From the NCBI GenBank assembly GCA_965213975.1, contig CBDCAR010000001.1, positions 32,134 through 96,133 on the forward strand: a stretch of 64,000 nt of DNA. The letters run 5' to 3'. The DNA is from Candidatus Spongiisociaceae bacterium. Its GTDB lineage: Bacteria > Actinomycetota > Acidimicrobiia > Spongiisociales > Spongiisociaceae. This document shows, piece by piece, positions 4,525-60,757 of this stretch. The notes below the pieces were generated by a model. The model was not told where the DNA came from and did not search any database. It saw only the letters and a program-made list of their open reading frames with translations. Made by a program: the position numbers and the translations under genes. Numbering within the stretch: the stretch's first letter is position 1; each line of letters opens with the position of its first letter.

Positions 4525-5970
4525 ATGTCTGTGTGGGTGTATAAGACGGTGCGTGTGCGGTTGCGTTTGTCTGCGGGTGTTCGGCGGCGGGTGTGGCGTC
4601 TGAGGGGCCAGCAGAACCAGGCGTTCAATCTGGGTGTTGAGTTGGGTTTGGGGGCCGTGTCTGGGGGTTTGAGGGTGCCGTCCGCGTTCGATGGTGACAA
4701 GACGTTGACCGAACGCCGCGGGGACGGGTCGATACCGAACCACCCTGTTGTTGCGTTGCAGCGGCCTGGTGTGAGGGCAGGCTTAGACGCGGTGACCAAA
4801 TGGGAGAACGCGGTTTGGAAGCACGGCAAAGACGTCGAATACTGGCAGAGTCGGGTGGAAGCGGCGTTAAGCGAAGGCGACGGGTTGGGGTACGCGCAAC
4901 GTAGGCTCGCCGTCGTGACCCAACGACGGGACCGTCACCGCCAGCGGGGCACGCGCAGGCTTTTCCGGTCGCGTAAACGTTTCGAGAGAGAACCGTCAAA
5001 CGGCGCCGCGCTGGTGTTCGACGAACGCGTGCGAGTGCGAGACGGCGGCCTAATGTTGCCTGGCGGTACCCGACTGAAACTCGCCGACCAAGGCTGGCAG
5101 CCTGCGGAAGGATGGGAACTGCGCGGCTCCGCGCAGATAGTCGATGTCACCCCCCGTGTCACAAGACGCACCCGGCCCGAGCACCGCAAATACGAAGCCC
5201 GCCTACAACTCCGCCAACCACAGGTCCTACGCCCACTACCCGAACGCCGAGAACAGGTCGTCGGTGTAGACCCCGGCGCGGTAATCCCAGTGATGGTCTC
5301 AGACGGACGAGCCTTCGGGCTCCCCGACGAAGACGCTGTAAGCGCCCAGATCAAAGGGCTTCAACAGCGTCGGGCGCGCTGCACACACAAGTCGCGGCAG
5401 TGGAACAAGCTCACCAGACGAATCCGTGTCCTAGAAGCCAGGCGGGCCAATCGTCGGACGGACGCCAGCCGACATATCGCCAAACACGTCGCCACCACAG
5501 GCGGGATAAGGGCAGTCGGGTCGGAAGCGAAGAACGCCCGCCAGCTCACCCGCTCCGCGAAAGGCACCAAACAGCATCCAGGTGTGAACGTAGCTCAGAA
5601 ACGCGGATTGAACCGCAAGCTGTCTAAGGCCCGGTTTGGGGGGATCCGCTCAGATATCGAAAGGGCCTGCCAACTGCGAGGGGTACGTTATGTGCCTGTC
5701 GCGGCTGGCGGTTCGTCGACGACCTGTCACCGTTGCGGTAGCAAGGGGACACGCGAGACCCAAGCAGTGTTCCAATGCGACAAAGGCTGCGGGTGGGTCG
5801 GTAACGCCGACTACAACTCAGCCAACGTAATAGGAGACAGAGCATGGACGTGCCTCAACGGCACGTCTGGGCGGTCGGGGCGGCCGCCGTCAGATGGTCA
5901 GCTGGGAGGGAAACCCAGCCAACACACCACAAGTGTTGCCCGAGACCATCCCAAACAAACCCTGAGGTAG
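4525..5970 (+). CDS. tnpB: RNA-guided endonuclease TnpB
   Basis: RuvC-I VVGVDPG, RuvC-II GSEAKN, Zn finger CHRCG/CDKGCG, RuvC-III NADYNSANVI; D-E-D triad intact. TATTAT -10 at 4513-4518 gives a leaderless start. In frame with the MT-A70 N-part. Confidence 0.93.
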   Translation: MSVWVYKTVRVRLRLSAGVRRRVWRLRGQQNQAFNLGVELGLGAVSGGLRVPSAFDGDKTLTERRGDGSIPNHPVVALQRPGVRAGLDAVTKWENAVWKHGKDVEYWQSRVEAALSEGDGLGYAQRRLAVVTQRRDRHRQRGTRRLFRSRKRFEREPSNGAALVFDERVRVRDGGLMLPGGTRLKLADQGWQPAEGWELRGSAQIVDVTPRVTRRTRPEHRKYEARLQLRQPQVLRPLPERREQVVGVDPGAVIPVMVSDGRAFGLPDEDAVSAQIKGLQQRRARCTHKSRQWNKLTRRIRVLEARRANRRTDASRHIAKHVATTGGIRAVGSEAKNARQLTRSAKGTKQHPGVNVAQKRGLNRKLSKARFGGIRSDIERACQLRGVRYVPVAAGGSSTTCHRCGSKGTRETQAVFQCDKGCGWVGNADYNSANVIGDRAWTCLNGTSGRSGRPPSDGQLGGKPSQHTTSVARDHPKQTLR

Positions 5971-6007
5971 ACAGCCAACAGCCGTCAACCCAGAGATATA
6001 AGCCCCA
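5880..6007 (+). ncRNA. Putative omegaRNA scaffold / right end of the TnpB element
   Basis: Overlaps the tnpB 3' end and has a subterminal hairpin. This is the segment conserved in all four copies. RNA boundaries are inferred. Confidence 0.55.
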
Positions 6008-6322
6008 CGAAAGGACGGTGGTCCTGACGGACGGGGCGGCGGCTTCTACTTCCGGAATGTGACAGAACTGATCCTGTTCGGCGTTAAGGGAAGGATGCGG
6101 ACGCTGGCTCCAGGTCGGCGGCAGGTGAACATGATCGAGACCCGGAAGCGCGAGCACTCCCGCAAACCCGACGAGCAGTACGGCATCATCGAAGCCTGCT
6201 CGCCCGGTCCGTACCTGGAGCTCTTCGCCCGCTACGTCTGGCAGGGTTGGGCATCGTGGGGCCTCGAAGCCGACGACGAAGTAGTTCCCCGGGGGAAGCG
6301 GCACGCCGTGTACAGATGATTG

Positions 6323-6358
6323 TGGGGCCTATATACCTGAGTTGATACTCAGGGCGTA
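6323..6358 (-). repeat. Short repeat resembling the TnpB right-end terminus
   Basis: Reverse strand TACGCCCTGAGTATCAACTCAGGTATATAGGCCCCA with a CCTGAGT/ACTCAGG hairpin; closely matches 51471-51505. Confidence 0.75.
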
Positions 6359-59715: not shown

Positions 59716-59798
59716 TTGGGGGCACAGACGCAACAGCCCCGACTATCGTGTCGGATCATGAAAGACCGGCCTGGTACACGTCTAGGACGATAGCTCTA

Positions 59799-60353
59799 GT
59801 GGCGAAACGCTGCGAGTGCGGGAACACCGCGAAACTGGGAACCGACTACTGCACCCCATGCCACAAGGAGCGGTACCGTGAGGCCTACCGCAGGGAACAC
59901 GGCACGCTCCCTCCGCCCCGGCAGAGATGCCAGCATTGCGGGAACTCCGCGAAGTGGGGAGCCGACTATTGCAGGCCGTGCCAGTCCCACCAGAACCACG
60001 TCCGCCTGCGCGAACGGGTTTACAGCGGCGAGCGGGTGTCACATCAGGACTGGGAACGCATCGTCGACGAAGACACCGCCGACGCCGCCTTTGAAGCCTA
60101 CAAGTGGTCTATCCGTGACGGTGACACCACCGAACAGGCCGCCGACGCCGCCGACCGGGCAGCCGCTCAGGTACTGAAGCTGCACCGCAAAGCCCGACAC
60201 CTGGAACTCCCCGACGAAGAACGCCAGAAAGCGCTTGACCTTCTCGCAGGCGGCCACACAGCTAGACGGGCAGGGCAGCAGGCAGCTGCGACAATGATCC
60301 GCCAGGCGGCGTGGGATGGCGTGACATCCGGGGGTAGCCACGCTCAGCCGTGA
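59799..60353 (+). CDS. Hypothetical protein with two tandem C4 zinc-finger repeats
   Basis: CECGNTAKLGTDYCTPC and CQHCGNSAKWGADYCRPC; start uncertain. Confidence 0.65.
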   Translation: MAKRCECGNTAKLGTDYCTPCHKERYREAYRREHGTLPPPRQRCQHCGNSAKWGADYCRPCQSHQNHVRLRERVYSGERVSHQDWERIVDEDTADAAFEAYKWSIRDGDTTEQAADAADRAAAQVLKLHRKARHLELPDEERQKALDLLAGGHTARRAGQQAAATMIRQAAWDGVTSGGSHAQP

Positions 60354-60386
60354 CCAGTTGCACGACCGCCGCCTTCCCTACAATGA

Positions 60387-60757
60387 TGGGGCTTATATCT
60401 CTGGGTTGACGGCTGTTGGCTGTCTACCAAGGGTTTGTTTGGGATGGTCTCGGGCAACACTTGTGGTGTGTTGGCTGGGTTTCCCTCCCAGCTGACCATC
60501 TGACGGCGGCCGCCCCGACCGCCAAGACGTGCCGTTGAGGCACGCCCATCCTCTGTCTCCTATTACGTTGGCTGCGTTGTAGTCGGCGTTGCCGACATAA
60601 CCGCAGCCGGAGCATTGGAACACTGCTTGGGTCTCGCGTGTCCCTTTACTGCCGCAACGGTGACAGGTAGTCGACGAACCGCCAGCCGCGACAGGCACAT
60701 AACGCACCCCCCGCAGTTGGCAGGCCCTTTCGATATCTGAGCGGATACCCCCGAACC
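60387..60757 (-). mobile_element. 5'-truncated TnpB element (~370 bp) with intact right end
   Basis: Matches ~5631-6007, covering the Zn finger, RuvC-III and right end. Confidence 0.92.

Follow-up and report, generated by a model that had tools for sequence, protein, structure and literature searches.

Transposons of the IS200/IS605 family have neither terminal inverted repeats (TIRs) nor target duplications (TSDs) and are mobilised by the Y1 HUH transposase TnpA. The ISL3 family generates an 8-bp TSD, and the IS1595 family was reportedly described by Siguier et al. in 2009. IS607 elements use a serine-recombinase TnpA and are likewise without TIR and without TSD (PMC6188088), and IS1595-family elements such as ISApl4 are bounded by A/T-rich 8-bp direct repeats (PMC12561309). 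TnpB nucleases are also found with DDE transposases: PMC10691335 distinguishes six DDE branches and, in its main text, names IS630 as the sole DDE partner. Standalone omegaRNAs, some of which work in trans (Altae-Tran et al. 2021, as related in PMC10691335), and PATEs, which encode omegaRNAs (Meers et al., 10.1101/2023.03.14.532601), are two-ended, mobile units.

The tnpB-only element considered here, T1, is present in eight copies on C2, which belongs to an Acidimicrobiia genome and is a plasmid-like contig of 183 kb, and on none of the other contigs. The window, the whole 64,000-nucleotide stretch that we analysed, corresponds to C2:32134-96133. Genome-wide BLASTN and nhmmer count four full-length copies on C2, A (window 4474-6007, plus strand, 1534 bp), B (C2:121326-122931), C (C2:175899-177454) and D (C2:4745-6361), as well as four right-end-only pieces, E to H, and no left-end-only piece. 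An nhmmer profile of the 5' 800 columns recovered the four full copies only, whereas one built on the 3' 800 recovered all eight. Fragment E (C2:109737-110371, 635 bp, right-end-anchored) lies outside the window; F, G and H lie inside it with copy A. Here the right-end motif GAGATATAAGCCCCA occurs at 5993-6007 on the plus strand and at 54594-54608 and 60387-60401 on the minus strand, with a one-mismatch form at 12698-12712 on the plus strand, four matches against 0.06 expected.

The motif scan, BLASTN and nhmmer bear out what an earlier note had seen in the window, namely four copies with a common right end and differing left truncation, none of which keeps its left end. This includes copy A, which the note took to be full; it is left-truncated and lacks the TIR carried by B, C and D. 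The copies are not separated by a few SNPs, as was claimed, since they diverge by 2-7% in shared parts and 8-12% overall (88-92% identity). The dS between copies is ~0.25, and, judging by identities across copies, none of the fragments was copied recently from a full element. Every flank is unique to its copy; all eight differ. Nor does a single intact TnpB serve the replicon, as the note had it: the tnpB ORFs of A, B and D are intact, and that of C has one stop. The note had also proposed counting left-end-only and right-end-only pieces genome-wide; for T1, this gave 0 against 4. We regard the right-end bias of copies A to H as suggestive, not compelling, and it is statistically weak, with a two-sided binomial P of 0.125 for the four pieces (4/4) and 0.0625 if copy A is included (5/5). 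In wider searches, PLSDB plasmids gave no DNA match, a peptide-pattern search of GTDB genomes gave no close relatives, and JGI metagenomes gave distant TnpBs only, at 37% identity or less.

Copy A is bounded by a 12-bp direct repeat, CGAAAGGACGGT. The left copy of the repeat (4462-4473, plus strand) is within an MT-A70 methyltransferase gene, and the right copy makes up the first 12 nt of the guide-equivalent flank, CGAAAGGACGGTGGTC (6008-6023, plus strand). Excising 4474-6019 restores an ORF that matches the Pfam model of MT-A70 from end to end (1-172/172, E 6e-28). The right end of copy A is intact, and just the ~27-28-nt left tip is missing. Its flank repeat is 12 bp, as against the 8-bp TSD of the family, and begins at guide nucleotide 1; to arise by plain deletion, it would need a 1/256 coincidence. 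The tnpB ORF (4528-5970, plus strand), which continues the reading frame of the MT-A70 fragment before it, encodes a protein with the RuvC residues D248, E333 and D428 and a Cys4 zinc finger, and matches Cas12f1-like_TNB (PF07282, E 2.5e-11) and OrfB_IS605 (PF01385) in Pfam. D248, E333, D428 and C400/C403/C417 are invariant across 24 homologues. Pfam and the homologue alignment together give the RuvC D-E-D triad and zinc finger of a TnpB/OMEGA nuclease. With a dN/dS of ~0.2 among copies, the intact tnpB genes of A, B and D are under purifying selection.

The last ~140 nt of the element adopt a five-helix omegaRNA-like fold that overlaps the end of tnpB and runs into the flank. In copy A, this module occupies 5870-6007 (plus strand), with helix P0 at 5870-5890 and a core at 5892-6007 made of a P1/P2/P3 three-way junction and a P4 hairpin, and it closes in the transposon tip ...ATATAAGCCCCA. 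As in TnpB/OMEGA systems, a predicted structured RNA starts at the 3' end of tnpB, crosses the right end and continues into the flank. Covariation strongly supports the fold: 91.8% of cells are paired and 15 of 30 pairs show double changes, while none of 500 shuffles was as good and slid controls reached 23-44%. A comparison with Rfam returned no family match to the scaffold and no match anywhere in the window. The scaffold is the slowest-evolving and most conserved part of the element, with unique changes at 7/880 in its core versus 228/5034 upstream. All four fragments keep helices P1-P4 and, with z values of -4.5 to -7.3, fold as the full copy does. By covariation and folding, each piece is therefore what the earlier note had suggested, a complete omegaRNA-like scaffold joined to a different flank.

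What precedes the scaffold differs among the fragments. Fragment F (60387-60757, minus strand, 371 bp, element 1160-1534) retains the C-terminal TNB/zinc-finger part of tnpB and P0-P4, and its would-be guide is TCATTGTAGGGAAGGC (60371-60386, minus strand). Fragment G joins a right-end piece with P1-P4 and the 3' arm of P0 (54594-54715, minus strand, element 1409-1534) to an internal tnpB piece (54717-54811, minus strand, element 682-776); it extends to 54811, not 54786 as first reported, and represents a ~630 bp internal deletion plus a 5' truncation. Its flank, TGCGTCCCAATACCTC (54578-54593, minus strand), holds the first six codons of a toxin gene that is probably PIN-like. A Phd/YefM antitoxin gene (54292-54579) stands directly before these codons, and the remainder of the toxin gene is missing. 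Fragment H (12599-12711, plus strand) is 113 nt long and consists of P1-P4 only. With a DUF2442 gene on one side and an AbiEii gene on the other, it is antisense to both and is surrounded by gene fragments. Its homology begins 1-2 nt ahead of P1, and leftover homology upstream of the breakpoint (12/24 matches) is too weak for use. The tip of H is short of one C, at the scaffold-guide joint, and its would-be guide, AAGGATTCGTACAACT (12712-12727, plus strand), has no further match in the genome at one mismatch or fewer. This region of the plasmid is rich in broken toxin-antitoxin and defence genes. For E, F, G and H alike, we found no flank duplication and no cryptic left tip near the 5' junctions.

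These fragments resemble standalone omegaRNAs and PATEs in being protein-less, in placing a right end and scaffold beside a locus-specific guide, and in sharing a genome with intact tnpB genes from their own family. However, they vary between 113 and 635 bp, include dead tnpB coding remnants, are immobile because the left end is missing, and have no left tip within reach, whereas the known units have both ends. The parents differ too: that of PATEs, IS200/IS605, has hairpin ends, and that of E to H has TIR/TSD ends.

B, C and D carry TIRs of roughly 24-27 bp (TGGGGCTTATAT...ATATAAGCCCCA). Five T1 relatives (47-61% identity) have TIRs together with 8-bp TSDs, CTAGTACT, AAACCGAG, CATCAA(AA/GG), ATATCAAA and AATCCGAA. 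T2, a second TnpB family that is sister to T1 and shares its ends, has TIRs and 8-bp TSDs both in the source genome (TAGATTAA, AATGAGAC) and in another MAG (AAAGAAAA, TAAACAAT). Where the flanks have stayed intact, the A/T-rich 8-bp TSD of the IS1595 family is thus found, in five T1 relatives and four T2 insertions. At the flanks of B, C and D we found no TSD, and copy A has its 12-bp repeat instead. The element is not IS200/IS605-like and moves as a TIR/8-bp-TSD element. Y1 TnpA (Y1_Tnp) and serine recombinase (a Resolvase-domain gene) are both absent from the genome, which rules them out as movers. Together with the TIRs and 8-bp TSDs, the lack of Y1_Tnp excludes membership of IS200/IS605, including the IS1341 group; TIR, TSD and the lack of a Resolvase-domain gene exclude IS607. 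T1 is similar to the IS1341 group in its lone tnpB gene, its size of ~1.5 kb, its multiple copies and the lack of an internal tnpA, but differs in having TIRs and TSDs.

A candidate mover is suggested by the ends. In another genome, L105, the same 24-nt tip, GGGGCTTATATATCTGAGTTGACA, lies ~60 nt upstream of an IS1595 transposase gene (DDE_Tnp_IS1595, E 1.4e-42). C2 itself carries two IS1595-family transposase genes, of which one is full and the other truncated; one of the two is at C2:167277-168209. Upstream of copy 1 is the tip GGGGCTTATATGCGTGAGTGCC, which has its first 11 nt and TGAGT in common with T1, and copy 2 has a degenerate tip only. The match of ends thus concerns the upstream tip of the transposase genes: none of the IS1595 genes searched has a matching right tip, and no complete IS1595 copy with both tips was found. 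An IS1595 transposase is present in 5/8 other TIR-bearing genomes, with the same tip absent at the three that were checked, and genome G061 has fresh T2 insertions yet no IS1595 transposase match. Because the terminal sequence of T1 recurs ~60 nt ahead of IS1595-family DDE genes, two of them on C2, and the element has TIRs and 8-bp TSDs, an IS1595-type transposase acting in trans is the most likely mover. The likeness to IS1595 comprises the TIRs, the A/T-rich 8-bp repeats and the terminal bases GGGGCTTATAT... upstream of transposase genes in L105 and C2. Unlike IS1595, the element carries tnpB and an omegaRNA in place of the DDE transposase, and is therefore non-autonomous. An ISL3 partner, found near two relatives, was ruled out since its ends (GGCTCTTCG...) do not match; a 1.45-kb, six-copy repeat on contig C1, considered as a hidden transposase, proved to be a DUF222/HNH-type gene; and no tnpA adjoins the T1 relatives in the neighbourhoods examined. 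As in the DDE-associated and solo TnpBs described in PMC10691335, tnpB lies ~40 nt or less from a symmetric end and the nuclease is intact, and, like the solo TnpBs mobilised in trans that are described there, T1 has ends that resemble those of a transposase-bearing element. The difference from the IS630-partnered TnpBs of that paper is that the ends and 8-bp TSD point to IS1595.

We think it probable that the four window copies and E are old, independent insertions of a TIR/TSD tnpB-only transposon, and that E to H are relics left by deletion. The transposon would insert with its TIRs and an 8-bp A/T-rich TSD by means of an IS1595-type transposase supplied in trans. At the right end, the last ~140 nt would give the omegaRNA-like scaffold, and the adjoining flank would serve as guide. 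Deletions would then strip the left part of the element to leave E, F, G and H, taking adjacent host DNA with them at G and probably also at H. The intact TnpBs of A, B and D could still load these scaffolds if they are transcribed. Signs of decay are the internal deletion and cut toxin gene at G, the gene fragments around H, and the lack of flank repeats at E to H. The pieces look pristine because the scaffold is the slowest-evolving part. Against decay, each of the four partial copies is, like copy A, truncated on the left, and none is truncated on the right (P 0.06-0.125). We take deletion to be the source of E to H, presume them to be inert, and treat them as relics until expression is shown.

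Related elements bear on the polarity of the pieces. T2 and IS1595 have left as well as right ends among their single-end stubs. In the window, T2 has left a 36-nt right-end stub (6324-6359, minus strand) with the same terminal repeat as T1, too short for a scaffold, a 53-nt right-end stub (51453-51505, plus strand) and an 85-nt subterminal right-end fragment (11472-11556, minus strand, element 1284-1367). Since T2 right-end stubs have lasted at 36-53 nt, a length at which they could not work, right ends evidently survive without function. T1-like fragments elsewhere have both polarities, C-terminal in genome G006 and N-terminal in G219. Among 401 genomes of the class, we found a single T1-like fragment, N-terminal, and the family is too rare for a wider sample of end bias. 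G061, a genome with recent T2 activity, holds six full copies, one two-ended MITE and no recent right-end-only copies.

The same pieces could instead be kept by selection as dispersed guide units, with the scaffold and flank guide loaded in trans by the TnpBs of A, B and D, which would widen the targets of the nuclease. Trans guides are a plausible role with precedent in the standalone omegaRNAs of PMC10691335 and in PATEs (10.1101/2023.03.14.532601): each piece has a complete, covariation-backed scaffold and a distinct flank, and therefore may in principle offer a new guide to the three intact TnpBs with their DED triad. In the 113-nt core, moreover, E, F and G have zero unique substitutions and H has three, one of which mends a P4 mismatch, and the two shortest pieces break off just 5' of helix P1, as though the scaffold were preserved. 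For the orphans alone, however, the difference between core (3/444) and upstream (13/798) is not significant. A promoter scan found no sigma-70-like promoter 5' of F, G or H, and H is antisense to both its neighbours and lacks one base where scaffold meets guide. All the guides are plain local plasmid DNA. The earlier note had proposed searching the flanks for targets elsewhere; this turned up nothing above chance level in the genome for any of the eight, the best match being 15/16 for the flank of copy A at C1:2001907, a site that is not an MT-A70 paralogue. Together with the survival of T2 right-end stubs at non-working length, these points make selection for guide units unlikely.

A second alternative is that the left truncations arose at birth, at the level of DNA, through aborted repair synthesis after a TnpB cut. 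Aborted copying is known to produce 5'-truncated LINE insertions and internally deleted P and Ac elements. Here, TnpB would cut the empty allele within or just past the flank that matches the guide; the right-hand end, a perfect match to the donor, would prime copying into the right end and onward; and synthesis would abort, after which Ku-dependent end joining would attach the nascent strand to the left-hand end. Such a process would fit copy A, which is missing just its left tip and whose repeat, longer than the 8-bp TSD, starts at guide nucleotide 1, as it should if target bases as far as the TnpB cut were retained on the left. Each of the five partial or tip-less copies is anchored at its right end, the internal deletion of G is of the type produced by interrupted gap repair, Ku is present in the genome, and in IS605 elements TnpB is an established trigger of recombination (10.1101/2023.03.14.532601). 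The likeness to LINE, P and Ac products is the constant 3' end, the ragged 5' end and the odd length of the repeat at copy A; the differences are that there is no reverse transcriptase here, that four of five copies have no flank repeat, and that ordinary deletion covers most features. Later deletions explain the missing host DNA at G and H equally well, G061 holds no such products despite the recent activity of the sister element there, and T2 has left-end stubs too. We therefore consider birth by aborted repair quite doubtful, and see only a slim chance that aborted copying at TnpB cuts strips the transposon to immobile scaffold and guide units across the replicon, with copy A as the least-truncated product.

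Abortive target-primed copying in the retroelement sense, as the earlier note put it, by which omegaRNA or tnpB mRNA would be reverse-transcribed at a nicked target, is very improbable: the fixed 3' end and ragged 5' ends, and the start of H no more than 1-2 nt from the first scaffold helix, possibly a processed-RNA start, would suit it, but the genome has no RVT_1 reverse transcriptase, E to H have no target duplications, an omegaRNA retro-copy would bring its source's guide while the eight flanks all differ, G holds an internal tnpB piece foreign to any processed omegaRNA beside its internal deletion and missing toxin gene, and the element moves with TIRs and an 8-bp TSD.

Decay of old insertions, our preferred reading, means that the guide-RNA scaffold survives longer than the rest of the element and leaves immobile scaffold-plus-flank units. 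If expressed, such units would form a natural halfway stage from transposon guides to guide sets kept by the host. Should the aborted-copying reading be true, it would supply a concrete step from a selfish element to a host-kept, CRISPR-like guide set served by few intact nucleases. The 12-bp repeat around the tip-less copy A offers a testable handle on how TnpB cutting affects repair outcomes in a Ku-positive bacterium. For T1/T2-type elements, our analysis corrects the default view of tnpB-only elements as IS200/IS605 relatives. Their TIR/TSD ends also change how the guide, the TAM and the "homing" role are to be read, as the guide would start with the target duplication.

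A direct check of the sequence at 4474-6007, 12599-12711, 54594-54786, and 60387-60757 bore out the earlier note's observation of four copies sharing a 3′ end. Four matches to the right-end motif GAGATATAAGCCCCA, one of which carries a mismatch, lie within the window, where 0.06 were expected. With the 1534-bp copy as the query, a BLASTN search of the whole genome (two contigs: C1, 2.43 Mb; C2, 183 kb, with the window at C2:32134-96133) found eight copies, all on C2 and each with its own unique flanks. Only A, which lies in the window, and B, C, and D, which lie beyond it, are full length. 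The remaining four keep the right end and extend for different lengths: 635 bp in E, the only one of these that is outside the window, 371 bp in F, and 113 bp in H; in G, 122 bp are joined to a 95-bp internal piece. Searching with a profile built from the 3′ 800 columns recovered all eight copies, and a profile from the 5′ 800 columns recovered just the four full ones. The copies are not near-identical; identity between them is 88 to 92% overall and 93 to 98% across the last 113 nt. A 1.45-kb repeat encoding a DUF222/HNH-like protein, unrelated to the TnpB elements, is present in six diverged copies, 82 to 94% identical (C1:493073-494628, 1039307-1040999, 1203968-1205570, 1433875-1435317, 1550914-1552517, and 1767665-1769249).

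The element ORF encodes TnpB (PF07282 and PF01385), in which the D248/E333/D428 triad and the zinc-finger cysteines are invariant. The notion of a single intact TnpB holds within the window but not beyond it: the ORFs of A, B, and D are intact, and that of C has one stop. Comparison of the four full copies gives a dN/dS of about 0.2 at a dS of about 0.25, which indicates that tnpB has been under purifying selection and that the copies are old. Neither a Y1 TnpA nor a serine recombinase was found in the genome, and an adjoining tnpA was absent beside every fetched relative (47 to 61% identical, from metagenome assemblies). An alignment of left flanks shows the right tip, inverted, at the start of B, C, and D (TGGGGCTTATAT...). 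Relatives of this family, T1, have the same ~25-bp terminal inverted repeats (TIRs), and five of their loci carry clean 8-bp A/T-rich target site duplications (TSDs): CTAGTACT, AAACCGAG, CATCAA(AA/GG), ATATCAAA, and AATCCGAA. A second TnpB family, T2 (29% identical; C2:1197-2577), has the same 24-nt tips as T1, with 8-bp TSDs in the source genome (TAGATTAA and AATGAGAC) and in another Acidimicrobiia MAG (AAAGAAAA and TAAACAAT). IS200/IS605 elements have neither TIRs nor TSDs. Nor do IS607 elements (PMC6188088). The TIRs and TSDs therefore rule out membership in either group and place the tnpB-only family outside both.

In 10 of 10 TSD-bearing insertions from both TnpB families, a G immediately precedes the left 8-bp TSD copy (L013, L015, L017, L018, L099, L111, and L116 in other assemblies; C1:1650610-1651336; C1:1736748-1738110; and window position 4461, copy A, which enters the count only with its TSD read as CCGAAAGG). 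A mirrored C does not follow the right TSD copy, and the asymmetry might reflect part of the TAM or a preference for targets in one orientation. At the left end of B (C2:122851-122931), which is chimeric, a degenerate T1 tip comes after 55 nt of T2-type left end, which suggests that one element inserted into another or that the tips common to both families recombined. The 727-bp mini T2 element at C1:1650610-1651336, with its own 8-bp TSD (AATGAGAC), comprises a 13-nt left tip, ~45 nt of unrelated sequence, and the tnpB 3′ half plus right end; it is largely a right-half element that kept, or regained, two ends.

What moves such an element? A scan of GTDB genomes matched the tip at 15 sites in Acidimicrobiia, Chloroflexota, and one gammaproteobacterial MAG. 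Inward of the tip lies a T1- or T2-like tnpB at most of them and, at L105, an IS1595-family transposase (DDE_Tnp_IS1595, E = 1.4e-42, plus a zinc ribbon). The C2 plasmid carries two IS1595-family genes, the first (C2:167277-168209) with a full DDE domain and the second (C2:162909-163889) truncated. A tip precedes each start codon by ~60 nt, GGGGCTTATATGCGTGAGTGCC for the first gene and a degenerate form for the second. The repeats generated by IS1595-family elements are 8 bp long and A/T-rich (PMC12561309). Previously described TnpBs include DDE-associated ones with inverted terminal repeats and solo ones that are mobilised in trans (PMC10691335). Our best inference from these sequences is that an IS1595-type transposase mobilises the tnpB-only element in trans. 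No matching right tip was found for the L105 or C2 IS1595 genes, an IS1595 search in genome G061 gave no match despite six T2 copies (94 to 100% identity) with fresh TSDs, and in three other genomes that bear the tip, it is absent at the IS1595 genes that were checked. The two C2 genes (C2:162909-163948 and C2:167222-168209, outside the window) are inverted, ~3.3 kb apart, with tips face to face; one is truncated after 517 bp at 99% identity, and the intact one overlaps the start of an N6/N4-type DNA methylase gene by ATGA. A methylase also adjoins the L105 gene.

The right end carries an omegaRNA-like module. We aligned the last 150 nt of seven copies from the source genome and eight relatives and tested the fold with RNAalifold and an explicit five-helix model. 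Paired cells reached 91.8%, versus 23 to 44% in slid controls, two-sided changes occurred at 15 of 30 pairs, and none of 500 shuffles equalled the model. The predicted order is P0, a three-way junction in which P1 closes P2 and P3, a conserved CCCAAACAAA linker, and a P4 hairpin whose 3′ arm, with the bases after it, is the transposon tip. No Rfam family matches the module. The cores of A, F, G, and H have the same predicted shape (z-scores of -4.5 to -7.3); E and F keep P0 to P4, G keeps P1 to P4 and half of P0, and H, which begins 1 to 2 nt 5′ of P1, keeps P1 to P4. No other part of the element evolves as slowly as the right end, with 7 unique changes in 880 core positions versus 228 in 5034 upstream.

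Most features of the fragments can be accounted for by ordinary decay, with E to H as decayed, immobile right-end remnants of the tnpB-only element. G has a ~630-bp internal deletion as well as a 5′ truncation, and its right end abuts a Phd antitoxin gene, six codons into a putative PIN-like toxin gene whose remainder is gone. H occupies the expected slot of a DUF2442 gene's partner, next to a stray DUF2442 C-terminal fragment, and a DUF433 pair adjoins F. T2 and IS1595 genes have left left-end-only stubs (C2:98873-98972; C1:1964172-1964220; the 55-nt T2 end fused to B; the truncated IS1595 copy) and also right-end stubs, some just 36 and 53 nt. T1-like fragments in other genomes show both polarities (C-terminal in G006, N-terminal in G219). 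G061, with recent T2 activity, has full T2 copies and one two-ended MITE and no young right-end-only copies. The right-end bias of 4:0 (or 5:0) has a P of 0.125 (0.0625), and the slow evolution of that end may account for part of it.

Other observations concern the surroundings. T1 insertions are found within or next to genes for toxins, methylases, and defence (window 4054-6319, 12145-13481, 54292-54897, and 60984-61581), the host sites being an MT-A70 gene, a PIN-like toxin gene after codon 6, the DUF2442-partner slot, and the DUF433 pair; relatives adjoin HipA, AbiEii, and N6_N4 methylase genes. Chromosome and plasmid share a 606-bp segment at 98% identity (C1:1963567-1964172 and C2:145895-146500); on C1 it stops exactly at a T2 left tip, which there marks a recombination or transposition boundary. 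The 270-bp MITE-like T2 derivative in G061 (MAG CBDCBK010000010, C10:1925437-1925706) joins the left 168 nt to the right 107 nt.

That the right-end-anchored copies, or orphans, might serve as guides in trans is a minority reading. There is precedent for such use (PMC10691335; 10.1101/2023.03.14.532601), the scaffolds are intact, and the cores of E, F, and G have zero unique changes. One of three in H, A to T at window 12674, turns a P4 A.A mismatch (GGTAGAC.../...GTCAACC) into a T-A pair, so that its P4 is a perfect 10-bp stem. However, H is one base short at the scaffold-guide joint, the core-versus-upstream contrast is not significant among the orphans, a scan not tuned to the host's phylum found no promoter-like site, and no guide target rose above chance. 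The flank of A has a 15/16 match at C1:2001907-2001922, outside any MT-A70 paralogue; since ~0.06 such matches are expected per guide, it is probably chance.

Abortive copying after a TnpB cut, also a minority reading, seems an unlikely source of the truncations. TnpB would cut the empty allele some 12 to 21 nt into the target, the right-hand end would prime copying through the element's right end, and the unfinished product would be joined to the left-hand end. Such a history predicts a repeat that exceeds the TSD in length and has the first guide base as its start. The repeat on either side of A (CGAAAGGACGGT) is of this kind, at 12 bp rather than 8, and A lacks only its ~27- to 28-nt left tip. 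Copy A interrupts an MT-A70 gene, and excising the insert with one repeat copy restores the gene exactly. The genome encodes Ku, and the alternative for A, an 8-bp insertion followed by tip deletion, requires a 4-nt coincidence (~1/256), but A is a single case. There is no support for target-primed reverse copying: a reverse transcriptase is missing from the genome, E to H have no flank repeats, all copy flanks differ, and G retains an internal tnpB piece.

Of the earlier note's interpretation, then, the intact scaffold is supported and target-primed copying is not. The fragments are decayed, immobile right-end remnants of a tnpB-only element of the TIR/TSD type, with intact omegaRNA-like scaffolds, and their parent element was probably mobilised by an IS1595-type transposase.
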